IMG/VR virus record: IMGVR_UViG_3300035136_000101
Direction: 5' to 3' (one strand)
Source of the DNA: a virus
DNA: 28,733 nt
Of this stretch, positions 398-22,625 are shown piece after piece. The notes under the pieces are model-generated. The model did not search any database and was not told the DNA's origin. It saw only the letters and a program-made list of their open reading frames with translations. Within the stretch, counting starts at the first letter, position 1. The number at the start of each line of letters is the position of its first letter. Made by a program: the position numbers and the translations under genes.

Positions 398-3193
398 ATG
401 ACTGATTACACATATCCTGGGGTCTATATTCAAGAGGTTCCTAGTGGTCCTGGTCCGATTACTGGTGTTTCAACATCTAATTTGGGTCTTATTGGTTTTT
501 CTACCAAAGGTCCAGTTAATGAACCAATTATATCGACAAGTTTTCAGGAATTTTCGAACAGATTTGGAAGTTTTACAGAGAAGGGTTTATCTGCTCATGA
601 AGCGTTTGCTTTTTTCTCTAATGGTGGACAAGTTTTGTATTTTGTTAGGGTTGTGGCTAGTGATGCTGCAACAGCTTATTGGGATTTTGCTGCAACAGTA
701 TCAAGTGAAAATGTATCAAATACTGCTGAAGGAACAGGGATTTATGATTTGGAATTAGATCATTCTCCGGTTGTTCCTGCTACATTGACATTGACTTTTA
801 CAAATTCTGGTACACCAGCAAATCAAAACGTATTTGTTGCTGATGCTAGTGGTGTGTTAACGTTAGATACAACAGCATCGGGTGGTTCAGCTGATGGTGG
901 TACTGGTTCTGTTGATATGGAAACAGGGGAGATTCATGTAGAATTGACTACACCTGGTCAATTTACAGGAAGTACTGATTATATTGTAGCTGAATATAAT
1001 TATACGATATTCAGGTTTAGAATGGCATGGCCAGGATTGGCTGGGAATTATTTTAGAGTAAGGATAATTCCAGGAAGTGATGATTATCTTGTTCAGGCTG
1101 AAGCTAGGTGGACAAGATTTACAGTAATCGTTGAAGAAGATGTAAATTATGATGCAACAAATCGTTCATGGTCAATTGTTGAGACATGGGCAGATCTTGT
1201 ATTTGATGATTCAGAGGATCCAAATTTTGTTGCTACAGTAATAAATGCTGATGGTGCTGGGTCTGATTATATCGAAGTAGTTGATTATGGAAACGGAATG
1301 AATCCTGCAGCGCTTGCAGGAACACAAATTACGTCTGAGGATATTTCTGATACTCAATTACCACAAGGCAGCACTTCTACTCCTCCTGTTGCATATGACG
1401 GAACAACAAAGGCTTGGGAATATACATTGGCAAATGCTCCATTTCAGAAGACTTTGAATATGGATTTTCAGATGGCTGATGGCTTAGTATCTTTTACTGG
1501 TGCAGCCACAGCGGATAATGTAGTTCTTACAGATTCTGGAGCAAATTTTACTGGTGGTGGGGCAGCAGATAATTTAGCTGGTAAGATTGTTGTAAATATA
1601 TCAAAGGGAGCATCTGCAGTAATAACTGCAAATGATGCAACGACAATAACAGGTGTATTAACAGGTGGGGCTGTAACATGGTTAACAGGTGATTTGTATG
1701 CTGTTATTGAGGCATCAACAAAGATAGGAACAGGAACCGCTCAAGCAAGTGGTCAAGAATCTGTAATATCACCTGGTAATACATCAAATCCTGTTCAGAT
1801 TGTTCCTGGTTCAGTTGTGATGGAATTGACTCTTACTGGACCTACAACTGTTCATGTTATAGATGATGGATCTGGTAATTTATGGGATGGTTCTGGTGGG
1901 TCGTTGGCAACAATTGATTATACAACTGGTCAGATTACAGGTATAAGTCCTACAACTGATGATCTTATTACGATACAGAGTGTTACAGCATGGGCAAGTG
2001 ACACAGTTGCTGTTGGTAGCGAAATTAAATTTGGTTGTATATATGCAGTTCCAATTGCATTGGAGGATGATGCGGATGGGAATATGGTAATGTCAGATAC
2101 CCAAGCAACTGGGTATCCTGCTAAGTTTTCGCTTAATCTTGTTTCTGGTGTAAATACTGTTAATTATACAACTGGTGTTGTTGATTTAACATGGAAAATT
2201 GAGGGTAATCCAGTTGCAGGTCCAGCAGGAGTATATTCTGAAACAGCAGATTATTATACAAATCCAGATGATGAGATAGCAACGGTATTAACAGGAGGGT
2301 CTGATGGTTCTTCTGTTTCTAGTGATGATGTTGTAGGTGCAGATTTGGCAGTTGACCAGGAAGGCATATATGCTTTTGGAAAAGTAAATGCCTTGATGCA
2401 ACTTGTAGCTGCTGATTTTCAGACAGATACAAATGTTGCTGATGCACTTATTACATATGCTGAATTGGTGAAGGATAAATTTGTTATTTTGACGGTTCCT
2501 CATGGTCTTAGTTATCAAGAGGCTGTTAATTGGAAGAAATTTCAACTTAATAAATATACTTCATATGCTGCTTTGTATTATCCGCATATCAAGATTAAGG
2601 ACCCTGTGAGTGGAGTAAATCAGGATATTCCTGTTGGTGGACATGTAGCTGGGGTTTACGCAAGGACTGATACTATAAGAAATGTTGGTGAAGCTCCTGC
2701 TGGTACCGAAAAAGGTGTTTTGAATTGGTCAACTGGTCTTGAAGTTGAGTTGACTGATACACAGGTTGGTATTATATATCCAGAAAAGATAAATGCTTTA
2801 GTAGCATGGGCTAATACTGGACGTGTTGTATGGGGTGCTAGAACATTAGATATTTCTGGAGGTGAATGGCCATATATTCAGATGCGTAGGCTTTTCATGT
2901 TTGTTGAAAAATCAGTGTTTAATAGTACTCATTTGCATGTATTTAAAAATAATGGTTCTTCATTATGGAGTGCAATAAGAACTCAGGTCGTTTCTTTCTT
3001 GTTAGGTTTGCACCAATCAGGATATTTTGCTGGAAATAGTCCAGATGAGTCATTCTTTGTGATTTGTGACCGGTCAAATAATCCTCAGAATACAGTGGAC
3101 CAAGGTATCGTGTTTTGTGATGTAGGGATTGCACCTAATAAGCCAGCGGAATTCATAGTGTTCAGATTTCAGCAAAAGGCACTCACTAGTTAA
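398..3193 (+). CDS. contractile tail sheath protein, unusually long at 931 aa
   Basis: The N-terminus has the sheath signature Y-x-PGVYIQEV. The C-terminal ~200 aa (…VWGARTLDISGGEWPYIQMRRLFMFVEKSV…KPAEFIVFRFQQK) matches the conserved sheath C-terminal domain. A GGAG sits 6 nt upstream of the ATG. Confidence 0.9.
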   Translation: MTDYTYPGVYIQEVPSGPGPITGVSTSNLGLIGFSTKGPVNEPIISTSFQEFSNRFGSFTEKGLSAHEAFAFFSNGGQVLYFVRVVASDAATAYWDFAATVSSENVSNTAEGTGIYDLELDHSPVVPATLTLTFTNSGTPANQNVFVADASGVLTLDTTASGGSADGGTGSVDMETGEIHVELTTPGQFTGSTDYIVAEYNYTIFRFRMAWPGLAGNYFRVRIIPGSDDYLVQAEARWTRFTVIVEEDVNYDATNRSWSIVETWADLVFDDSEDPNFVATVINADGAGSDYIEVVDYGNGMNPAALAGTQITSEDISDTQLPQGSTSTPPVAYDGTTKAWEYTLANAPFQKTLNMDFQMADGLVSFTGAATADNVVLTDSGANFTGGGAADNLAGKIVVNISKGASAVITANDATTITGVLTGGAVTWLTGDLYAVIEASTKIGTGTAQASGQESVISPGNTSNPVQIVPGSVVMELTLTGPTTVHVIDDGSGNLWDGSGGSLATIDYTTGQITGISPTTDDLITIQSVTAWASDTVAVGSEIKFGCIYAVPIALEDDADGNMVMSDTQATGYPAKFSLNLVSGVNTVNYTTGVVDLTWKIEGNPVAGPAGVYSETADYYTNPDDEIATVLTGGSDGSSVSSDDVVGADLAVDQEGIYAFGKVNALMQLVAADFQTDTNVADALITYAELVKDKFVILTVPHGLSYQEAVNWKKFQLNKYTSYAALYYPHIKIKDPVSGVNQDIPVGGHVAGVYARTDTIRNVGEAPAGTEKGVLNWSTGLEVELTDTQVGIIYPEKINALVAWANTGRVVWGARTLDISGGEWPYIQMRRLFMFVEKSVFNSTHLHVFKNNGSSLWSAIRTQVVSFLLGLHQSGYFAGNSPDESFFVICDRSNNPQNTVDQGIVFCDVGIAPNKPAEFIVFRFQQKALTS

Positions 3194-3205: not shown

Positions 3206-3934
3206 ATGGCTCTAATAAAGGTAATTCCAAATGTGCTCATTCATGAGTTTTTGACTGGAGCTTCTTTATCAGGTGTTGCTCCAGTCAATGTAGAATATTC
3301 ATTTGATTATGATAATGAAGCTAGTGGACCATTTGTAGTTGGTGACGCATTGTCTTGGACTGGTGGAACAGGTCTTTTAGCAGATTTAGTAGATAATGGT
3401 ACTACGGGAAGTATGACTATTGTATTGATAAGTGGAGTTGTACCAACTGATGGTTTGACTATTACAGGGGCACCGTCTGGTGCTACTTGTGATGTTGATG
3501 GTGTTGTAACATTAGTGGGTGATTGTGATTCTAATGAGACTATAAAGAGAGGGCGTTATAGAAGATATTGTAATTTGGCAGATGGTGGATTGATAGATAT
3601 TGAAGAATCTGTTGCAATAAATGGTTTCAGAGTAAAAGATGTTTTGATTAGTGCACCTGGTATTACTGCGGTTATTTTTTATGTTGTTGATAGGGATTCG
3701 AATGCTGTATGTGCTGGTAGTGCAACTGTTACAACAGGGAATGGTTTTAATGAATGGATAGAACCTGGTTTACTTGTTGCTCCAGGATGTAAATTTAAAG
3801 TAGTTGGCACAGGTACATTAACTGATGCTGGAAGAATAATGTTTATTCTTGATAATGGATGGGGAGCAAGTGTATTTGATTTTGCACCATCGATAGGCAG
3901 GGAAAGTCGGCCTCCTGGTATGGATAGGCCATAA
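3206..3934 (+). CDS. hypothetical Gly/Val/Thr-rich protein between the sheath and tube genes
   Basis: A complete 242-aa ORF with an AGGGG RBS, sitting 12 nt after the sheath stop. I recognise no family. Confidence 0.4.
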   Translation: MALIKVIPNVLIHEFLTGASLSGVAPVNVEYSFDYDNEASGPFVVGDALSWTGGTGLLADLVDNGTTGSMTIVLISGVVPTDGLTITGAPSGATCDVDGVVTLVGDCDSNETIKRGRYRRYCNLADGGLIDIEESVAINGFRVKDVLISAPGITAVIFYVVDRDSNAVCAGSATVTTGNGFNEWIEPGLLVAPGCKFKVVGTGTLTDAGRIMFILDNGWGASVFDFAPSIGRESRPPGMDRP

Positions 3935-3946
3935 GGAGTTAATGAA

Positions 3947-4474
3947 ATGCGAGCAGCAAATACAGATTTCATGCAAGGTTTTAGATATCATGTTGTGGCA
4001 AATAATGGGGAGGGCGATCCACTTCAACCATCAGTTCAATCTGATCGTGATGGTCATGATACAAATGGTCAAGCTGGTTTTCAATCGGTTACAATTCCAG
4101 AAATTTCGGTGGAAGCAGCTGAATATAGAGAAGGTATTTTTAAATGGACAGAAAAATTTCCTGGTCCACCTACTGTATCAGAATTGACTATGATGAGAGG
4201 TATTACAAAGCGTGATACTACATTTTATGATATGGTAATGGCATCTGTTGAAGGTGCGGAATATCGAGCAGATGTAATAATATATCATTATCAGAGATCT
4301 GAGATGGATTTAGCTACATCAGCTACAGTTGGTGATGATATTCGTAGGATTGAGTGTGGAGAATGTTTTGCTATTCGTGCTAAACCAAATGGAGATTTGG
4401 ATTCTACGGCTGGAGATGTTTCTTTAGGTGAAGTAGATCTTGCAGTGGAAAAATTTGAAGTAAAATATTCTTAA
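3947..4474 (+). CDS. tail tube protein of the T4 gp19 / Afp1-like family
   Basis: The motifs FRYHVV…EISVEAAEYREGIFKWTEKFPGPPTVSELTMMRGITKRDTTFYDMV and C-terminal VEKFEVKY fit the gp19-type tube consensus (EYREGG…K.PG…LKRG). An AAGGAG RBS is present. Confidence 0.8.
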   Translation: MRAANTDFMQGFRYHVVANNGEGDPLQPSVQSDRDGHDTNGQAGFQSVTIPEISVEAAEYREGIFKWTEKFPGPPTVSELTMMRGITKRDTTFYDMVMASVEGAEYRADVIIYHYQRSEMDLATSATVGDDIRRIECGECFAIRAKPNGDLDSTAGDVSLGEVDLAVEKFEVKYS

Positions 4475-4495
4475 TATTTTTATGAAGGTGCATAA

Positions 4496-5053
4496 ATGGC
4501 AAGAAATCGTTTATTGGATTTTATGCAAACTCATAAATTTTGGCTATTCGATGTAGTTCCAAGTTTGTCTCCTCCTTTTTGGGTTTTAGGGACACCTTTT
4601 TTAGGTTTTTCAAGTATTACAGCACCACAATACACCGCTGAAGTTGATAATATAAAACAGATTAATTCTATGTTTCGGAAATATGCTTATTCTGGAGGAC
4701 AAGTTGATCCAATAGTATTGACAAGAGGTGTTCGTGGATTTGATGATACTATGTGGGAATGGATGTATAGAGCAATAACTGGTTTAGAGGTTACAAATAG
4801 ACATTTGTTATTGCTTCATTTTACGAATATTAGATTGTCTGATAGTCCTTTTCCAAATGTGGCTGAAGGATTTCAATTTCCGATGACTGCTGGAATTTTT
4901 CTTCCTGGTAAAGCATGGCTTCTTTGGAATTCTATTCCAATACGGTATAAAGCTGGATCAGATTTTGATGGTAAAAGTGGTGAAGTTAGTTTGGCTGAAT
5001 TAGAGGTTCAGCCAGAAGCTATAACAGAATTTACATTGTTAGATCCTGTATGA
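4496..5053 (+). CDS. second tail tube paralog (Afp5-like or tube-initiator-like)
   Basis: HKFWLFDV…FSSITAPQYTAEVDNIKQINSMFRKYAYSGGQVDPIVLTRGVRGFDDTMWEWM parallels the tube-family blocks. The C-terminus SLAELEVQPEAITEF resembles the tube C-terminus. The gene sits immediately after the first tube gene. Confidence 0.6.
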   Translation: MARNRLLDFMQTHKFWLFDVVPSLSPPFWVLGTPFLGFSSITAPQYTAEVDNIKQINSMFRKYAYSGGQVDPIVLTRGVRGFDDTMWEWMYRAITGLEVTNRHLLLLHFTNIRLSDSPFPNVAEGFQFPMTAGIFLPGKAWLLWNSIPIRYKAGSDFDGKSGEVSLAELEVQPEAITEFTLLDPV

Positions 5054-5066
5054 TAATTTATAGATA

Positions 5067-5546
5067 ATGGAATTTCAATATACTTCAACAATGACGAGAA
5101 GAGAACTTGCTGTAAAACTAATGAATGTTTTACGTGAAGGGTTCAATAAAAGATTCACAAAGAGAGCTTTTATTTCTCCTGTTCCAAGATCTTTTCCTGG
5201 TGGTCATGTAATGGTTATGTTGTCTCCGTTATATAATAAAAAAGGTGAAAATGTTGGTGAAATAAGGATTTATATCTATGTTTCAGAAGATGAAAATATA
5301 CCAATTCTTATAAGATCAGAATGGACAAGAAATGCATTTGGTTTTTGGTATAGATACGATAATAGATTATTTGATAAAGATAATGTAATAGTTGATTTGT
5401 ATTCAAAAATAAGAGACATTTCAAAATGGTTTTCTGTTACAGCAGATGGGACGGTTAAGGTTTTGTCAATGAATCGTATGTTTAGAAAAATAAAGAAAAC
5501 ATCTGCTCGTGACAAAGCAGTCAGAGTTGGAATGGTAATGGGATAA
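5067..5546 (+). CDS. hypothetical protein (159 aa)
   Basis: A complete ORF in the co-oriented tail operon. I recognise no family. Confidence 0.4.
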   Translation: MEFQYTSTMTRRELAVKLMNVLREGFNKRFTKRAFISPVPRSFPGGHVMVMLSPLYNKKGENVGEIRIYIYVSEDENIPILIRSEWTRNAFGFWYRYDNRLFDKDNVIVDLYSKIRDISKWFSVTADGTVKVLSMNRMFRKIKKTSARDKAVRVGMVMG

Positions 5547-5891: not shown

Positions 5892-6302
5892 ATGGGAAAA
5901 TTAAAGATATATTCTGATAGTATAGATGAGTTACTGGTTAATAGGGTTGATGCTGATGTAATGAGTGAATCATCTGAGTTAGGTAATGATGATGAAAAGA
6001 TTGATGAGGCTTGGAAGATTGAAGACTATATGTTTAATTTCGTTTCGGTAAAAGCTTTGGTTGCGTTGTCATTGTCGATAGTAAAGCGAATGAAAGGCAG
6101 TGCTCTTTCTAAATTTCAAGGAAAATTATCTGATATTGATAATGAGATGGAAAAAGAAATAGACAGAATGGATAGCAAAAAAGAGATGGAATTTAATAAA
6201 TTATATATGAAAAAGATAAAAGGTGTTAAGGCTAAAATATTAGAAGAATTTGGTGGCGATTTTTTGAAAGAAATTGAAGAAGATAAAAGGGAAAAAGAAT
6301 GA
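5892..6302 (+). CDS. acidic coiled-coil protein, putative tail assembly chaperone (gpG-like)
   Basis: A 136-aa highly acidic protein with a strong AGGAGAG RBS. It lies between the tube and tape-measure genes, where G/GT chaperones are found. It ends in an A-run (GGGAAAAAG) and overlaps the next ORF, which is in the -1 frame. Confidence 0.4.
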   Translation: MGKLKIYSDSIDELLVNRVDADVMSESSELGNDDEKIDEAWKIEDYMFNFVSVKALVALSLSIVKRMKGSALSKFQGKLSDIDNEMEKEIDRMDSKKEMEFNKLYMKKIKGVKAKILEEFGGDFLKEIEEDKREKE

Positions 6303-6598
6303 CAATATCTTCTGGTAATATTGCTGGTGTGATAAAACCTATTGGAATGTTAAAATTACCGTGGTGTCCATGTAGTGGTAGAATTTGTAAAATTGAAGAA
6401 ATTCCAGTTAATAAAAAGAAGAAGAGAAAGATTAGTGTGTATGAGATATTGAATATTGATGGTCATACTATGCTTGAAGAAGCAAGAGAAAAACGTCATA
6501 TTGTGAACGGTAAACGTGGAATATGGCGCACAATAAGAGGAAGGCATTATTTTTTTCCGGATGATAAATCAGGTGTTATTCCTCCAATTAAGGGTTAA
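6299..6598 (+). CDS. basic protein; possible T-extension of a G/GT-like chaperone, or an independent small protein
   Basis: A 99-aa Lys/Arg-rich ORF in the -1 frame relative to 5892..6302, with an ATGA overlap. Its frame is open only from 6287, inside the A-run. Confidence 0.35.
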   Translation: MTISSGNIAGVIKPIGMLKLPWCPCSGRICKIEEIPVNKKKKRKISVYEILNIDGHTMLEEAREKRHIVNGKRGIWRTIRGRHYFFPDDKSGVIPPIKG

Positions 6599-6600
6599 TA

Positions 6601-6810
6601 ATGGTTATTATGAAGGATATTATAGAGTCTAGTGGTTCAGAAATGATGGAGGGTATTTCATATGGTGCTGCTGAGAAGTTAGCAGATAATATGATAAAAA
6701 ATCCTAGAAGTGTAGCTATGTTGGATAGATATGGTGTTGAGGCATCTGAGGATATTACTAGATTGAAAGATGCTCTAGTTAAATTTCTAATAAATTATTT
6801 TAAGAGATAA
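6601..6810 (+). CDS. hypothetical small protein (69 aa)
   Basis: A complete ORF in the operon. An alternative ATG lies at 6610. Confidence 0.3.
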   Translation: MVIMKDIIESSGSEMMEGISYGAAEKLADNMIKNPRSVAMLDRYGVEASEDITRLKDALVKFLINYFKR

Positions 6811-6822
6811 TAAAAAAATTGA

Positions 6823-6838
6823 TGTTTCACGTGAAACA
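6823..6838. promoter_or_regulatory. 16-bp perfect palindrome TGTTTCACGTGAAACA, a candidate operator
   Basis: Read directly from the sequence. It is perfectly self-complementary and lies 7 nt upstream of the 6845 ATG, abutting its AGAGAGG RBS. Confidence 0.4.
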
Positions 6839-6844
6839 GAGAGG

Positions 6845-7144
6845 ATGTGTAAGATGTGTAAAAAGAAGACTGTAAATGTTGTGAATTCTGATGATTTGAG
6901 GAAGAAAGTTTCTGATGTTGAGATATTTGGTAATCCAGATACTTTTCAGTTAATTTGTAAGGCAAGTTCCAAAAATGAAGGATGGATGAAGTCAACAAAG
7001 GCTATGGAGATTCCCGGAAGAGGATGTATAATACAAGTTTCTACACAGCAAGGTGATAATGTTGCAGAAGCTATTTGTTTTGTTCCGGATGTTGTTATTT
7101 TAGTTGATGATGAAAGTGGAAATAAAAAGATAGTAAAAGGATAA
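6845..7144 (+). CDS. hypothetical protein (99 aa, N-terminus MCKMCKKK)
   Basis: A complete ORF with an RBS. It is the last plus-strand gene before the inverted regulatory insert. Confidence 0.35.
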   Translation: MCKMCKKKTVNVVNSDDLRKKVSDVEIFGNPDTFQLICKASSKNEGWMKSTKAMEIPGRGCIIQVSTQQGDNVAEAICFVPDVVILVDDESGNKKIVKG

Positions 7145-7154
7145 TAATTGTGTT

Positions 7155-7505
7155 TTATGTCAAACACTTATTGATCCATTCAGTAATGAGAGCATCATAG
7201 ATTTCACAGACATCGCATGGTTTAGTAAGAATATGTATATTGGGCATATCATATTTGAGTGTATAGTTTGCTGTATATATTACGAATGGTATTGTTGAAT
7301 GTTGAACTATTTTTAGTCCGTCTGATTTGTTTGGGCAATCCCAATCACTAAGGATTATGTCAAAATTTCCGTCTTGAAGAGCTATTAGTCCATCATCACA
7401 GGAATGTTTTATTGTTATACTTTTCCAAGTATTTTTCATTACTCTGGAAAGCATACGGGTAATTTGTTCATCATCATCGATGATTAGTAAATTCAGGTTT
7501 TTCAT
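7155..7505 (-). CDS. stand-alone response regulator receiver (CheY-like REC) domain protein
   Basis: LLIIDDDEQI…DIILSDWDCPNKSDGL…FVIYTAN…ILTKP carries all the conserved REC residues: the acidic DD pair, the phospho-acceptor Asp, Thr and Lys. It is 116 aa with no output domain. Confidence 0.75.
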   Translation of the reverse strand: MKNLNLLIIDDDEQITRMLSRVMKNTWKSITIKHSCDDGLIALQDGNFDIILSDWDCPNKSDGLKIVQHSTIPFVIYTANYTLKYDMPNIHILTKPCDVCEIYDALITEWINKCLT

Positions 7506-7512
7506 TGTTTTT

Positions 7513-7722
7513 TTACCATACGGCTATTTGTTTTTTGCATGAATCACAAGGTTCAGTGTTTGATTTGGAGAGATGTGAATTCATAATAAAAATAGCAGTT
7601 CCTTCTTTTTCTAGTTGTTTAGCACATTCTATACAATAGAGATAACCTCTGTTGTCGACTATTCCTGTAATTGTATTATTTGGGTCATTTTTTTGATAGA
7701 TATAAATTTCTGAGGCTTTCAT
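7513..7722 (-). CDS. small Cys4 zinc-ribbon protein
   Basis: 69 aa with C-x2-C…(25)…C-x2-C (CIECAKQ…CDSCKK). It lies 7 nt upstream of the REC gene on the same strand, with an AAAGGAA RBS. Confidence 0.5.
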   Translation of the reverse strand: MKASEIYIYQKNDPNNTITGIVDNRGYLYCIECAKQLEKEGTAIFIMNSHLSKSNTEPCDSCKKQIAVW

Positions 7723-7738
7723 TAGTTTGTTCCTTTCT

Positions 7739-7755
7739 GTCGAAATCTTATCGAC
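7739..7755. promoter_or_regulatory. inverted repeat GTCGA-n7-TCGAC in the 5' leader of the minus-strand operon
   Basis: Read directly from the sequence. It lies between the predicted minus-strand -10 element and the RBS of the zinc-ribbon gene. Confidence 0.3.
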
Positions 7756-7766
7756 TATCTATATGA

Positions 7767-7794
7767 ATATTAACATTATGATAAAGTTTGTCAA
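7767..7794 (-). promoter_or_regulatory. sigma70-like promoter for the zinc-ribbon/REC operon
   Basis: The minus strand reads TTGACA, then a 16-nt spacer, then an extended -10 TGtTAATAT. Confidence 0.5.
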
Positions 7795-7821
7795 TTTTTT
7801 TGATAAAAAAATGCAAAAGTG

Positions 7822-7851
7822 TTGATAATAATAGCAGAAAAGTGGTATTAT
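7822..7851 (+). promoter_or_regulatory. sigma70-like promoter for the RHH gene and the downstream operon
   Basis: TTGATA (7822-7827), an 18-nt spacer, TATTAT (7846-7851), followed by an AGGAAGG RBS and the ATG at 7884. Confidence 0.4.
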
Positions 7852-7883
7852 TTACTCAAGTAGTGTTTTAGGAAGGTTGTTAT

Positions 7884-8063
7884 ATGCCAAGGTTGAATGT
7901 TGAAATAAAAAGTGGTGTATATAAGAGGTTTCTTGATCAATGTAAGGAGGATGGTAGAAGTGCTAGTGATGTTGTTAGAGAGTTGATTTTAGATTATGTG
8001 GAGAGAAGAGTTAGGGAAAAATTTAGGATTGCTAAAATAGAGAAAGAAGTTACAGATGAATGA
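7884..8063 (+). CDS. ribbon-helix-helix (CopG/Arc/ParD-like) DNA-binding protein, 59 aa, not in the ORF track
   Basis: ATG at 7884 is preceded by AGGAAGG. MPRLNVEIKSGVYKRFLDQCKEDGRSASDVVRELILDYVERR fits an RHH beta-strand plus two helices. The stop at 8061-8063 overlaps the next gene's ATG at 8056. Confidence 0.6.
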   Translation: MPRLNVEIKSGVYKRFLDQCKEDGRSASDVVRELILDYVERRVREKFRIAKIEKEVTDE

Positions 8064-8883
8064 GATGAACGATGAAAAGGTTATCGATGATAAAATTGTA
8101 TTAGGTAAGACAAAAGGTCATGTTCTTGATATAGGGCCAGGTTGTATTACTATTGAGTTGCCAGCAGGATATATTCATGAGGATGGAGAGCTTCACGTGC
8201 ATGCTGTATTACGTGAGATGAAGGGACCAGAAGAAGAATTGTTGGCTAGTAAAGGTTCAATAGTTTCTAGATTGAATGTTATAATGGGGAATTGTTTAGA
8301 GCAAATAGGGTCTATTAGTGATAAGTCTTTATTAAGAAAGATAGCTTGTAATTTGATAGCTCAAGATAGGATGGCTATTCTTTTGGCTCTTCGTAGGATA
8401 TCACTTGGTGATTTTTATGATTGTACAGTTACATGTCCAGAGTGTAATGTGAGTCAGCATGTTACGGTAAATTTATCAGAAATTGAAATTTCACCAATGC
8501 CAAATAGGATGGAAAGAGAAATGATTAATACTCTTCCTAGTGGAAGAGAAATTAAATGGCATGTGATAAGGACAGAAGATGAAGAATGGCTTACAGAGCA
8601 GCGTAAAAGAAAAAGAGATAAAGAACTTTTAACATTACATTTATTGTCTCGTGTTGATTCGATTGATGATATTGAAGTAGATAGAAAGAATAAGTATAAA
8701 GAAGCTATTGATTTGTTGATGGATTTATCGATAAGGGATAGAGCTACTTTGAGAGATCTTTTTGATAAAAAAGAAGATAATATAGATACGTTGGTGCAGT
8801 TTATGTGTGAGAGGTGTGGACATGAATGGGAAGGTAAGTTGGATGTTGGTCAGCCAAGTTTTTTCTTCCCATCGGTCAAATAG
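8056..8883 (+). CDS. hypothetical protein with two CxxC…CxxC zinc-ribbon motifs (275 aa)
   Basis: CTVTCPECN and CERCGHEW motifs are present. The gene is translationally coupled to the RHH gene. I recognise no family. Confidence 0.5.
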   Translation: MNEMNDEKVIDDKIVLGKTKGHVLDIGPGCITIELPAGYIHEDGELHVHAVLREMKGPEEELLASKGSIVSRLNVIMGNCLEQIGSISDKSLLRKIACNLIAQDRMAILLALRRISLGDFYDCTVTCPECNVSQHVTVNLSEIEISPMPNRMEREMINTLPSGREIKWHVIRTEDEEWLTEQRKRKRDKELLTLHLLSRVDSIDDIEVDRKNKYKEAIDLLMDLSIRDRATLRDLFDKKEDNIDTLVQFMCERCGHEWEGKLDVGQPSFFFPSVK

Positions 8884-9065
8884 GTGTCCTTGAGGATGAA
8901 ATATTTTATTTAATGGAAAGACAAGGACAGAGTTATTTGACCATTATGAATATGCCATATTCAAGAAGAAAGCGGTTTGTAGAAAAAAAATCTTCATTAG
9001 ATAGGTCTGCTATGAATGTTAAAAAGAATCAACAAAATTATAGCAGACCAAGACGAAGAAGGTAA

Positions 9066-9079
9066 CGAACTCGAGTTCG
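9066..9079. repeat. palindrome CGAACTCGAGTTCG (copy 2), 12 nt upstream of the tape-measure ATG
   Basis: Read directly from the sequence. It is a perfect 14-bp palindrome. Confidence 0.9.
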
Positions 9080-9090
9080 CGAGGTAAATT

Positions 9091-12075
9091 ATGGGTTTTC
9101 TTGGTATGTCATTAGAATTATCAGCTATTGATGATGGTATGAAATCAGCCATAGGGAAAGCAAGTGATTTACTTAATAATATAAATGAAATGATTCATGA
9201 CCAATTTAATGCGATAAGGAAGATAAAAAAAGAGGATTTTTTTAAAGGTATAAAAAGTGGTGCACAACAAGCTATTAAATCTATTAAGGATTTAAGTTTT
9301 GATTTTAAGTCGTTTTCTAATTTATTAGATAAGGTTGGAAAAAAATCATATGAGGTTTGGAAAAAGTTTGGAGATGGAATAAAAAAAGTTTCAGATGATT
9401 CTAAGAAACATATTGATAGTATGATGAAGCGTGTAACGCAGTTTAATATTGCTAATATGGCTTCAAATATGAAAACACTTACAGGGGAGACTGGTAATTT
9501 AACTAATAGTTTAGAAGCAACAATGACTAGTTTAATTCAAACGACAAAACCAATTGCTGCAACATTAGATTTATCAGGAAAGGAGATGAAGAAGTTTGCA
9601 GGTCAAGCGGCAAGTATGGCTTATAGTATGAATACATCGGCTGATGCTGTTGCAGAAACAATGAGATCAATTCATATAGCTAATAAGGGGGCAACAGAGG
9701 CTATGAATGAATTGGGATTGTCTACAAAAGATTGGGTTAAAGTTGTTCAAACAACTAATGTTCCTATGTCTGAATATACGGCTATTCTTGGTGATATGAC
9801 AACAAGTTGGCAAGCTTCACCAAAAGAGGCCGCTAATATGATTGACAGCCTTATGGCAATAGGAAAGGCTGCTGGAACTGGAACTGGTGCTGTAAAGAAT
9901 GCAAAAGTTCAGTTGGATGAATTAGGGGAAGTTTTTAAAACTTTGCCTCCTTCTATGGCAAGAACTTCTGATGAGATAATGAGCTTAATGCAATCATCAG
10001 CTAGAATGTCTGGTGTATTTAGAGAGATGGGAGATACGCAAGAAGAAGCTATAACAAAGGCAAATACTGTAGCAAGGATGTTTGCTGAACAGGATGTTGC
10101 TATTAGAAAAGCTTTAAATATTGGTGATGAACGTGCTCTTATGGATAATCCATTGCTTAAGTATCTTATGAGACTTGGTATTGGATTTGATTCGGCCAGA
10201 AAGATTATTGAAACTGGTAGTCGTGATGTAGTTGCTGGTATGAAGATGGTTAATAATGTTTATGCACGTTTTGGAACTGATGTGTCTCCACAGGTTCAAA
10301 GAGCTTTATCTGGATTAAGTGGTGCTCTTGGGGAAGGAGCTGCTGGATTATCATATTTGGCGACTAATACAAAACAAGGAACTGCTGCATTAGATAAAAT
10401 GGCAAATATGTCTGTTGTAGGTTCTGGAGCATTAAAGAAATTTGGAAAAGATGCATATAGTTCCGGGTTAACCTTACAAGAAACGTATGATAGAGCAAAA
10501 GAGTCATTTGATACAACTATTAGAAGTATATCCAGAGGAGATGTTAGAGGATTAGTTAGAAAACAGATAGAAGGAATGCGTCAAGCTGGTAAGGAATTAA
10601 AAAAACTTGGTTCTGATGAGACTTGGGGACCATGGATAAATGCTTTATCAAGATTTAGACAAATGGGTGTAGGTGGTATATTTTCAAGTGTTGCAGAGTC
10701 TACTGGCGTTGGTGCTGAAAATGCTGCTAAATTTGGTACCAAAGCAGGATTAATATTTGATACGGTAAGTCAACTTGGGGGTGAAATTGCTCCATTAATG
10801 CATTTATTTGGTATGACTGGTCCGCTAGGTCCATTGATTGCTATGGGAGGGTTAGGTGCATTGTTGGCTATGGATGAAGCTACTAGTAAGAAAATTTTAG
10901 GGTCATTTTATGATACATTTGCATCTTTAAAAAAGATGCTTCTTGGTGTTTGGGATGTATTTACTGATAAATTTGTTAGTATTTGGGATAATACAATAGC
11001 TCCAAAAATATCAGAAATTTGGAGTGAAATGTTATTGCCATATCTTGAGGAAACTACTCCAAGGATAGGAAAAGTATTTTTAGATGCATTCAAGTGGGCG
11101 TGGGATGCATTTTGGAGGGGAGATATGGAACAAGCACTTCTTGATGCAGAGAGGTTGAAAAAAACGGGTGTTTCTGGTCTTAGTGATAGAAAACTTGAAG
11201 AAATGTCTAAACGGAATGAAAAGGTTATAGAAGAAGAAACTAAAAATATAAATAGTCTTAAAACACTTACCATGGGAATGGGTGGTATTTCTGGTGGGTA
11301 TGCTCTTATGTATGCACCTGAGAGTAGGAAAATTGAAAAGGTTGAAGAATCTCAAAAAGCAATAGAGAGACAAAAAAAGTTTAGGAGAGATTTGGAAAAA
11401 TATGGGGCACCAAAGGCTGATATATTCACAGATGTAGCAGGTGTTTTTAGCGATTGGTCGGAAGGTGCAAAAAGTGGTGGAACAACTACTGGTGATTCAT
11501 TTGTTGAAGGAATTACAGATTCTTTGAAGAAGGGAAAAGATGTAGTTGATAAAAATGCAGGTTACGTAGCAGAAGGTGTGATATCTGAATCTCCAATTAA
11601 ATCTGGACCATTGGCTGGAGAGAAGGAAAATAATGCTGCATATCGTGGTGGTTATTTTACAATGGAGCAATTTGCTTTAGGTATTACTGATAGTACTGAT
11701 ATGATTAAGAGAGCAATTGAAGATACTCTTGCTGATTCTGTTATACTTACTATAGATACATATGCTGAAAAAATGAGAGATCTTGCTGAACAAAAGATGT
11801 TTTTAGCATCTGTTGCTAAAGCAATGGTAAAAGATTTAGGTGGAAATATAGAAACATCTATTGATTCCGAATCTGATATAAATGTGAAAAAGAATTTTGA
11901 AGCTGCTATGAATTTACCTGGTCTTGCTAGTGTTGTTTTGGCTGTTTCAAATGAAGGTGCTCAAACAAGGAAATTATTAAAACGTATTTTAGAAGAAAAT
12001 ATACGTCAAACCAGTGTAATGAGTGGCGGTGTGAGTATTTCTGTGACAGGAACTACTACTCCACCACCAAGTTGA
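9091..12075 (+). CDS. tail tape measure protein-like (994 aa)
   Basis: A long, helical, Ala/Met/Lys/Gly-rich protein with a hydrophobic Gly-rich segment (PLMHLFGMTGPLGPLIAMGGLGALLAM). It sits between the chaperone-like genes and the baseplate hub, with a GAGGT RBS. Confidence 0.65.
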   Translation: MGFLGMSLELSAIDDGMKSAIGKASDLLNNINEMIHDQFNAIRKIKKEDFFKGIKSGAQQAIKSIKDLSFDFKSFSNLLDKVGKKSYEVWKKFGDGIKKVSDDSKKHIDSMMKRVTQFNIANMASNMKTLTGETGNLTNSLEATMTSLIQTTKPIAATLDLSGKEMKKFAGQAASMAYSMNTSADAVAETMRSIHIANKGATEAMNELGLSTKDWVKVVQTTNVPMSEYTAILGDMTTSWQASPKEAANMIDSLMAIGKAAGTGTGAVKNAKVQLDELGEVFKTLPPSMARTSDEIMSLMQSSARMSGVFREMGDTQEEAITKANTVARMFAEQDVAIRKALNIGDERALMDNPLLKYLMRLGIGFDSARKIIETGSRDVVAGMKMVNNVYARFGTDVSPQVQRALSGLSGALGEGAAGLSYLATNTKQGTAALDKMANMSVVGSGALKKFGKDAYSSGLTLQETYDRAKESFDTTIRSISRGDVRGLVRKQIEGMRQAGKELKKLGSDETWGPWINALSRFRQMGVGGIFSSVAESTGVGAENAAKFGTKAGLIFDTVSQLGGEIAPLMHLFGMTGPLGPLIAMGGLGALLAMDEATSKKILGSFYDTFASLKKMLLGVWDVFTDKFVSIWDNTIAPKISEIWSEMLLPYLEETTPRIGKVFLDAFKWAWDAFWRGDMEQALLDAERLKKTGVSGLSDRKLEEMSKRNEKVIEEETKNINSLKTLTMGMGGISGGYALMYAPESRKIEKVEESQKAIERQKKFRRDLEKYGAPKADIFTDVAGVFSDWSEGAKSGGTTTGDSFVEGITDSLKKGKDVVDKNAGYVAEGVISESPIKSGPLAGEKENNAAYRGGYFTMEQFALGITDSTDMIKRAIEDTLADSVILTIDTYAEKMRDLAEQKMFLASVAKAMVKDLGGNIETSIDSESDINVKKNFEAAMNLPGLASVVLAVSNEGAQTRKLLKRILEENIRQTSVMSGGVSISVTGTTTPPPS

Positions 12076-21725: not shown

Positions 21726-21746
21726 TAATAATATGAGAGGTATTTG

Positions 21747-22625
21747 ATGAATATATATTATATAAATTTGGACCGTTCAGAAGATAGAAGAGAAAAAATG
21801 GAGAAATCTTTTGAGCATGAAAAATTAATAAGGATATCCGCTATAGATGGCATGGAATGGGCTATTGAAGATACGTTTGATACTAGAGGGTTTCCTGTAT
21901 GGAATTTAGAGTATCGTGATAAATTTGTTAATGAAGGTATATTATTTGAAAATAGTATTCTTCCACCAACTCATGTTGCGTGTAATTTAAGTCATAGAAA
22001 GGCTATTCAGGAGTTTTTGAATACTGATGATGAATGGGCAATTATTATGGAGGATGATGTTGAAAAGTCAAAAGCTTATTTTAAAGATGGAGAATTGATA
22101 GAAAAAAAAGTAGTTATTCCTAGTGATGCTGATATGTTTTATTTATGTGGGACAAGACCAGATAGACGGATATACGTTTTTGATGATGGTCAAGTTAGAA
22201 AAACTAGGACATTGATGGGATATTGTATATCAAGAAGAGGTGCTGAATTATTTTTAAAATCAACAATACCAATGATGTGGCTTTCTGATTATCAATTTCC
22301 TGTTTGTTGTTTTGATAGTATGTTAAATAATATAAGAGAGATTAAAATAAGAGATAGAAAAATAGTTTTTAAAAAGCGTATATTATTTAAAGAGAACAAA
22401 GATGATAAAGGAAATATTATAAGGAAGAAAAAGGAATGTGTTTCATTTTCAATTCCAAATAAAGATAACTATAGGACTATAAAACCAATTTTTCCAAAGG
22501 AAATAGAAAGTGAAGAAAAGATAAAAGCTTTTGCTGATAAAAAAGATGGTTTAATAAGACATTCTATTTTGTCTAAGCAATCATTACTTGGTAATTATGA
22601 AGGACATGGGAAAAGATTTTATTGA
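21747..22625 (+). CDS. glycosyltransferase family 25 (LgtB/Lic2A-type LOS glycosyltransferase-like)
   Basis: The N-terminus NIYYINLDRSEDRREKMEKSFEHEKL…ISAIDG matches the GT25 signature (IsL.rs.eRR…AvDG). I place the start at ATG 21747, 6 nt after a GAGAGG RBS. The track's start at 21744 is a TTG. Confidence 0.7.
   Translation: MNIYYINLDRSEDRREKMEKSFEHEKLIRISAIDGMEWAIEDTFDTRGFPVWNLEYRDKFVNEGILFENSILPPTHVACNLSHRKAIQEFLNTDDEWAIIMEDDVEKSKAYFKDGELIEKKVVIPSDADMFYLCGTRPDRRIYVFDDGQVRKTRTLMGYCISRRGAELFLKSTIPMMWLSDYQFPVCCFDSMLNNIREIKIRDRKIVFKKRILFKENKDDKGNIIRKKKECVSFSIPNKDNYRTIKPIFPKEIESEEKIKAFADKKDGLIRHSILSKQSLLGNYEGHGKRFY

Follow-up and report, generated by a model that had tools for sequence, protein, structure and literature searches.

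The inverted gene pair and its cis elements

We analysed a 28,733-nucleotide stretch of viral DNA (IMG/VR virus record IMGVR_UViG_3300035136_000101; "the window" denotes this whole stretch throughout), in which two small genes, one encoding a stand-alone response-regulator receiver (REC) and the other a protein with four conserved cysteines (the Cys4 protein, here ZnR), lie on the minus strand amid plus-strand tail genes. Profile scans identified the window as the tail morphogenesis region of a phage, with a sheath protein of 931 amino acids (aa), two gp19-like tube proteins, a tape-measure protein of 994 aa, a T4-type baseplate hub (PF12322), gp25-like and gp6-like wedge proteins and large fibre-like proteins. 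All other minus-strand open reading frames (ORFs) of at least 80 aa are nested in larger plus-strand genes, which leaves REC and ZnR as the sole credible minus-strand genes of the window, as a first-pass annotation made from the sequence had stated. The two genes occupy a slot between the tube/assembly block and a block formed by a ribbon-helix-helix (RHH) gene, the hub gene and the tape-measure gene. The features at this slot, with nucleotides abbreviated as nt, are as follows:

6845-7144, plus strand: putative Lockin-family anti-Thoeris sponge gene, 99 aa; terminates the tail-strand block upstream; convergent with REC, 10 nt apart
7155-7505, minus strand: REC, stand-alone minimal receiver, 116 aa; motif SDWDCP, predicted phospho-acceptor D54
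7513-7722, minus strand: ZnR, Cys4 protein (CxxC...CxxC), 69 aa; first gene of the minus-strand cassette
7739-7755, minus-strand leader: palindrome GTCGA-N7-TCGAC, GTCGAAATCTTATCGAC; ends just 5' of the Shine-Dalgarno sequence
7767-7794, minus strand: predicted cassette promoter, sigma70-type; TTGACA, 16 nt, (TGt)TAATAT
7822-7851, plus strand: promoter-like site of the RHH-hub genes, sigma70-type; TTGATA, 18 nt, (TGg)TATTAT
7884-8063, plus strand: RHH protein (CopG/Arc-like), 59 aa; 8-nt overlap with the hub gene
8056-8883, plus strand: baseplate hub (T4 baseplate family), first structural gene downstream; PF12322, expectation value (E) 2.6e-13; phrog_150, E 1.6e-15

The first-pass annotation had placed divergent promoters between the two transcription units (TTGACA-16-TAATAT on the minus strand and a second one on the plus strand) and a GTCGA-n7-TCGAC repeat in the minus-strand leader. 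The hexamers were found as quoted, and the repeat is present, unique in the window and absent from all of 100 shuffled sequences (0 in 100). As a class, promoter-like sites are not enriched in this AT-rich region (18 versus 13.9 +/- 4.0 in shuffles), so the case for promoter function rests on conservation. Relatives of the locus were collected from IMG/VR, JGI, Logan and ENA, together with one metagenome-assembled genome (MAG). The minus-strand TTGACA is invariant in L002, L004, L005, L009, L017, L027 and L051, including relatives with a guanine-plus-cytosine (GC) content of 45% and 53%; in L017 (45% GC), whose REC is 40% identical to that of the window, the corresponding promoter reads TTGACA-17-TATGCT. 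The plus-strand promoter-like site is kept in L004, L005 and L009 and is not recognisable in L017 or L051.

The palindrome is invariant in close relatives and takes the form TCGGCA-N3-TGCCGA in L017, where one A-T pair has become G-C by compensatory change and one former mismatch is now paired. Its position is also kept there, directly 5' of AGAAAGGAAC-N-ATG. Judged by its sequence, the element could be either a dyad operator or a hairpin in the 5' untranslated region (about -6 kcal/mol), as the pattern of change fits either. The 161-bp intergenic region as a whole is 74-87% identical to those of L004, L005 and L009, and in the same comparisons the synonymous sites of REC, ZnR and the hub differ at 50-84% and are largely saturated; the cis elements are conserved well beyond the synonymous-site level. 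The most conserved intergenic blocks are the palindrome with its 3' flank, the minus-strand TTGACA and a plus-strand stretch TTGATAATAATA...AAAAGTGnTATTAT. The conserved block TCGACTATCTATATG has no second copy in the window beyond chance, a search of 6500-9200, the convergent Lockin/REC junction included, detected no intrinsic terminator, and the T4 late promoter motif TATAAATA occurs 6 times in the window against 5.1 expected and not at the intergenic positions. A search of Rfam at a permissive E-value over 6500-9200 and a transfer RNA scan of the whole window returned no RNA genes.

The stand-alone receiver and its family

The description of the minus-strand protein as an output-less CheY-like receiver with canonical residues was borne out by its ORF, by alignments, by an AlphaFold model and by Foldseek comparison. 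The window REC matches the Pfam family Response_reg (PF00072) with E 2.7e-6 and 28.0 bits, below the gathering cut-off of 30.2. Membership of the receiver superfamily is nevertheless secure, because relatives have precomputed PF00072 matches and a profile built from 25 family members aligns with CheY over its whole length (E 1.5e-13). A phmmer search with REC likewise recovers CheY, with the loop SDWDCPN aligned to the similar SDWNMPN of CheY. The AlphaFold model, with a mean predicted local distance difference test (pLDDT) score of 94.7, has the (beta-alpha)5 fold with five strands and five helices, and Foldseek places it at template-modelling scores of 0.80-0.86 to the CheY and PmrA receivers with a probability of 1.00. 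REC thus shares with CheY and other single-domain response regulators the fold, the acidic pair, the Asp, the Thr and the Lys, as well as the lack of an output domain. Residues D10/D11, D54, T78 and K95-P96 align with D12/D13, D57, T87 and K109 of CheY (Spo0F was also aligned), and this catalytic quintet is kept across the 25 family members, position 10 being D or E.

REC departs from CheY in several respects: the identity is only about 20-24%, helix alpha4 is cut to four residues (83-86), the alpha3-beta4 loop is seven residues shorter, and the aromatic switch residue is absent, with Ile92 at the position three before the conserved Lys and Ile or Val throughout the family where CheY has Tyr106. 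The REC gene is, moreover, phage-borne, with no che genes or kinase nearby. Because of the alpha4 stub and the Ile in place of Tyr/Phe, the alpha4-beta5-alpha5 output face appears degenerate in the model while the acceptor site is preserved. The ratio of nonsynonymous to synonymous substitution rates (dN/dS) of REC is 0.06-0.07 against L024 and L027, the two comparisons that are unsaturated, which indicates strong purifying selection.

An exhaustive HMMER search of 1.84 billion representative sequences gave 338 matches to the REC family at E<1e-3 and about 20 at E<=1e-10. All but one of the latter are stand-alone proteins of 108-150 aa that match end to end, the exception being a protein of 587 aa. 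With three further members (E 1.7e-10 to 4.1e-10) added, the family alignment (A3) holds 25 sequences that are 29-60% identical, and it defines a protein of about 115 aa with the signature [ST]DWDCP, invariant D11, D49, D54, P58, P73, T78 and K95, and a well-conserved helix alpha1 (RML-R-LK--W).

Among 185,579 species genomes, the sole true family member lies on a 53-kb phage-like contig within a MAG labelled 'uncultured archaeon'. In IMG/VR, members of the family were located on ten contigs, with GC contents of 35-63% and varied gene contexts. In L015, L016 and L018 the REC gene is co-directional with its neighbours amid genes for a dCMP deaminase, an ATP-dependent DNA ligase and other replication proteins, and the contexts in L019, L020 and L021 differ again; the replication-module contexts have no tail genes or RHH gene nearby. 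A metagenome scan added no further contexts. GenBank phages were searched at the DNA and protein level, using the region, the REC of the window and three more family members as queries; the only match was a weak, generic REC match on a 2.5-kb Salmonella phage fragment. The family is thus small, compact and restricted to phage-like contigs in the searches made, and on this sequence evidence it appears to be carried by no cultured phage.

The first-pass annotation had suggested looking for orphan histidine kinases or Hpt proteins as partners of REC. Profile scans found neither among the window proteins scanned. Across 95 proteins neighbouring REC family members, 28 families were matched, and HisKA, HATPase_c and Hpt are absent from the 25 most frequent of them. 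On the unrelated phage contig L018, a protein with an Acb2/Tad1 hairpin domain (1662-1997, plus strand; E 1.4e-10, above the cut-off) is encoded about 4 kb upstream of REC.

A variable slot within a large phage

In every relative the cassette faces away from the tail genes and diverges from the RHH-hub genes, and its contents vary, with two to six genes where REC is present. The slot holds:

Window and L024: ZnR, REC
L052 and L054: ZnR, a 59-aa gene, REC
L009 and L010: a gene of 68/69 aa, ZnR, a gene of 78/79 aa, REC
L003 and L004: six genes, transcribed in the order 78 aa, 78 aa, ZnR, 90 aa, 90 aa, REC
L017: a 57-aa transmembrane protein, a 274-aa Cys-rich protein unrelated to ZnR, REC
L051: eight unrelated genes, including one for a 468-aa AcrVA2-like protein (PF26125)

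The last of these is the most informative. Neither REC nor ZnR is detectable by tblastn in the L051 slot, and L051 (53% GC) keeps the RHH gene (its product 81% identical to that of the window), the hub gene and a TTGACA-16-TATATT promoter. The RHH gene and the baseplate operon therefore do not need REC; together with the divergent promoter they form a conserved backbone, on which the REC-ZnR pair is one alternative cargo among several. The AcrVA2-like gene of L051 lies at 3702-5108 on the minus strand and was recognised by a precomputed PF26125 match, and the other seven genes of that slot are small.

The plus-strand RHH gene that had been noted at the head of the baseplate genes is present and overlaps the hub gene. 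Its product matches known families only below threshold (E 1e-3 to 1e-2), namely VapB antitoxin, RHH_5, ParG and RHH_1 in Pfam and Arc-like PHROGs; relatives are named 'CopG family antitoxin' by JGI, and one of them has a weak ParG match. It is the most conserved small protein of the locus, with 81-100% identity in all relatives, and its gene always overlaps the hub start.

On the other side of the cassette, the protein encoded at 6845-7144 matches the PDB entry 9p8l_A, 'Lockin' (E 1.4e-17; residues 6-96 aligned), and the ligand-contacting GWMKSTK stretch is conserved. It is identical to an L022 protein that carries a precomputed match to PF26760 (Lockin), a family for which the local Pfam copy gave no match. 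From its sequence we therefore assign it to the Lockin-family anti-Thoeris sponges. Lockin sequesters the Thoeris signals 3'cADPR and His-ADPR, and its ligand-contact residues are K45, S46, T47 and K48 (bioRxiv 10.1101/2025.07.12.664507). The Lockin gene is absent from L003 and L004, so it is accessory too.

The small Cys4 protein reported beside REC was confirmed as an ORF. With its two CxxC motifs it is a candidate zinc ribbon; C30, C33, C59 and C62 are invariant in relatives, and an N-terminal MKASEIYIYQKNDPNNTITG is conserved as well. Its dN/dS is about 0.15. Family searches of Pfam, PHROG and NCBIfam gave no match; the AlphaFold model has a pLDDT of 68 and no fold match in the PDB with E below 1. 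Homologues of ZnR are confined to this clade, most phages with REC family members being without it, and the Cys-rich proteins encoded ahead of REC in L017 and L015 show no homology to ZnR. Only 7 nt separate the ZnR stop codon from the REC start, and there is no Shine-Dalgarno sequence in between, which suggests that translation of the two genes is coupled. The ZnR motifs C-x-E-C and P-C-x-x-C, 29 residues apart, are reminiscent of the zinc motif of cytidine deaminases. The JGI name 'deoxycytidylate deaminase' given to one ZnR relative (P0157) was rejected, as the seven residues that follow the second CxxC are too few for that fold.

Loci near-identical to that of the window were found on viral contigs whose lengths reach 158-173 kb, which identifies the element as a large uncultivated myovirus rather than a tailocin. 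A tailocin would be expected as a tail cluster within a cellular genome, lacking capsid and replication genes, and this is not what was seen: the sole match among species genomes is the phage-like contig binned into a MAG. The regions read showed neither integrase nor lysogeny genes, and the phage appears to be virulent as well as large. A close relative (L027 / L052; CAYUTF010000016.1, 53 kb) is deposited under the 'uncultured archaeon' MAG GCA_964447495.1. Sigma70-like promoters and Shine-Dalgarno sequences make it probable that the archaeal label is an artefact of binning.

Several further observations concern the window and its relatives. The plus-strand genes have a GC skew of +0.59 to +1.00 at third codon positions, with nearly no C there (13 genes quantified), and REC and ZnR, read on their own coding strands, have skews of -0.35 and -0.60. 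Since the skew of the inverted pair is opposite, it belongs to the DNA strand and not to codon choice, and the cassette has come into equilibrium with it. Asymmetry of replication or of transcription, or a base modification, could be the cause. Just upstream of the slot, a 99-aa protein (6299-6598, plus strand; also L017:6852-7145) with a lysine-run linker, KKKKRK, and a conserved C-terminal GVWRTIRGRHYFFPDDKSG motif is kept across relatives of 33% to 45% GC and has no family match. In one sub-clade, a 300-aa protein with faint Sigma70_r4 and helix-turn-helix matches (L005:14376-15278, minus strand) has its gene between those of the sheath and the tube, where an unannotated 242-aa protein is encoded in the window (3206-3934). 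A family-25 glycosyltransferase (21744-22625, plus strand; PF01755, E 5.8e-12; PHROG 'glucosyltransferase') lies among the large fibre/baseplate genes.

Possible roles of the receiver cassette

We consider that the minus-strand pair is best explained as swappable accessory cargo, whose receiver acts as a decoy or sink, diverting or draining a His-Asp pathway of the host, and is not a tail regulator, and we give this reading a probability of about 0.45. The cassette would be driven by the conserved host-type (sigma70-like) promoter and transcribed early by the host RNA polymerase, antisense to the late tail genes, with the palindrome lying after the promoter and abutting the ribosome-binding site. 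REC would be phosphorylated by a histidine kinase or Hpt protein of the host and would act mainly by competing for phosphoryl groups as a decoy or sink, or else through a phospho-dependent interaction at another surface; sink-type action is proposed because the usual output face of REC appears degenerate. A decoy or sink of this kind would serve host takeover or counter-defence. ZnR would be a clade-specific, tightly co-translated companion of REC, and RHH probably controls the divergent promoter region independently of REC.

Known systems resemble this scheme in part. In T4-type temporal organisation, early genes are transcribed from the strand opposite to that of the late genes. The window is alike in having a cassette with a host-type promoter antisense within an array of late structural genes, but unlike it in showing no enrichment of T4-type late promoter motifs. 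Anti-defence islands or hot spots, such as those with the Lockin sponge, likewise gather small variable genes at a fixed site; here Lockin adjoins REC and an AcrVA2-like gene sits in the L051 slot. They differ in that the present slot lies inside a tail morphogenesis cluster and on the opposite strand, and an anti-defence role of REC and ZnR is itself conjectural. CheY paralogues that act as 'phosphate sinks', as Sinorhizobium CheY1 reportedly does, offer a precedent for the proposed activity. Another is DtcB, the stand-alone receiver of the Detocs defence system, which has been proposed as a buffer that absorbs phosphoryl groups from the kinase (bioRxiv 10.1101/2023.01.24.525353). REC and DtcB are both stand-alone receivers with an intact acceptor Asp, and the sink logic of REC is proposed by analogy, on the phage side. 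Unlike DtcB, REC is without a DtcA kinase or a DtcC receiver-effector in its operon, and no kinase or PNP effector is encoded nearby.

A bolder version of the proposal is that the DWDCP mini-receivers as a class are viral early phosphate sinks that disarm Detocs-like defence or a host stress or dormancy phosphorelay. Here the receiver would then belong to an anti-defence island, with the Lockin sponge beside it. We regard this bolder version as doubtful. It would be a class of phage inhibitor not described as far as our literature searches show: these returned no paper on a phage-encoded receiver inhibiting Detocs and nothing specific on phage-encoded receivers as decoys or anti-Detocs factors. 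One preprint goes no further than noting that phages of ammonia oxidisers carry CheY and two-component genes among their morons.

Several points weigh against a decoy or sink aimed at the host. Phosphorylation of REC is a prediction from sequence and model, and no gene for a phosphoryl donor was found in the window or near any REC family member. REC has no specific similarity to DtcB or to other defence receivers in PADLOC, in which the window REC matched only PDC-M60B, and weakly (E 1e-3), and three relatives matched nothing; whether the library contains a DtcB model is unconfirmed. Helix alpha1, on which kinases usually dock, is well conserved even between phages whose GC content differs widely, and a conserved phage-encoded partner would explain this at least as well as diverse host kinases. 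Within its lineage REC stays in the tail-cluster slot down to 40% identity (L017), and a local role is possible. Early expression is read from promoter type and orientation only, and the anti-defence neighbours are guilt by association, the Acb2/Tad1-like gene of L018 being 4 kb away.

The first-pass annotation had favoured a local role of just this kind: a host kinase would phosphorylate REC, which alone or with RHH or ZnR would tune baseplate and tail transcription, thereby coupling particle production or firing to two-component signalling in the host. REC, RHH, the divergent promoter region and the palindrome are indeed co-conserved at the site in every sub-clade in which REC has a tail context, down to 40% REC identity, and RHH is plausible as the DNA-binding output. 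This explanation nonetheless seems quite unlikely to us. It is contradicted by L051, which retains RHH, hub and promoter with neither REC nor ZnR, and by the family members in replication modules; the variable content of the cassette with anti-defence genes among its neighbours, the identity of the element as a large phage and the degenerate output face predicted for REC also speak against it. That annotation had also held that a pair occurring elsewhere only outside tail loci would point to unrelated cargo; this was seen in part, REC family genes occurring both inside and outside tail loci and ZnR in this clade only. Its fallback, that the pair is a moron or defence cargo, fits the data best, or more precisely that the pair is accessory and probably serves counter-defence. 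Defence cargo in the strict sense, protecting the infected cell from competing phages by superinfection exclusion and not aimed at host signalling, would suit a variable hot spot under a host-type promoter, but we consider it highly improbable: REC, ZnR and RHH have no significant PADLOC match, the identifiable neighbours are anti-defence and not defence genes, and the phage appears to be virulent, large and devoid of integrase or lysogeny genes in the regions read.

A true phospho-switch, which senses the state of the host through a host kinase or acetyl phosphate and then binds a target to redirect host physiology or the infection programme, would account for the intact quintet and the strong purifying selection, and the conservation of alpha1 and the DWDCP loop across hosts suggests a conserved partner surface. 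The target might be a host protein, for instance a protease adaptor or a motor protein, or a phage protein such as ZnR, whose 7-nt junction with REC suggests co-translation. Weak similarity of REC to single-domain regulators such as CheY and CpdR also favours a switch. The missing Tyr/Phe switch residue and the truncated alpha4 speak against such a switch, as does the absence of ZnR from most REC-carrying phages, which means that ZnR is not a general target, and we judge a switch unlikely. The opposite possibility, a pseudo-receiver that uses the REC fold as a phosphorylation-independent scaffold to bind or inhibit a host or phage protein, would agree with the sub-gathering Pfam score, the shortened loops and the small, divergent family (338 matches at E<1e-3). 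Pseudo-receivers, however, typically lose their acceptor residues, and the invariance of D11, D54, T78 and K95 in 25 sequences as little as 29-60% identical makes this very unlikely.

To our knowledge, the viral use of receiver domains, the commonest bacterial signalling module, is almost undescribed. The present analysis defines a compact receiver family of phage-like contigs by its signature ([ST]DWDCP, a stub alpha4 and a length of about 115 aa) and its intact acceptor site, and places it in a cargo slot whose occupants elsewhere are known anti-immunity genes. Should the sink model prove right, phages would jam His-Asp signalling directly, much as they sponge cyclic-nucleotide immune signals, and the family would be a ready-made tool for silencing specific kinases. 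If it is wrong, the locus is still a conserved accessory hot spot with its own promoter/operator architecture inside a tail cluster, useful for mining anti-defence genes in uncultivated large phages.

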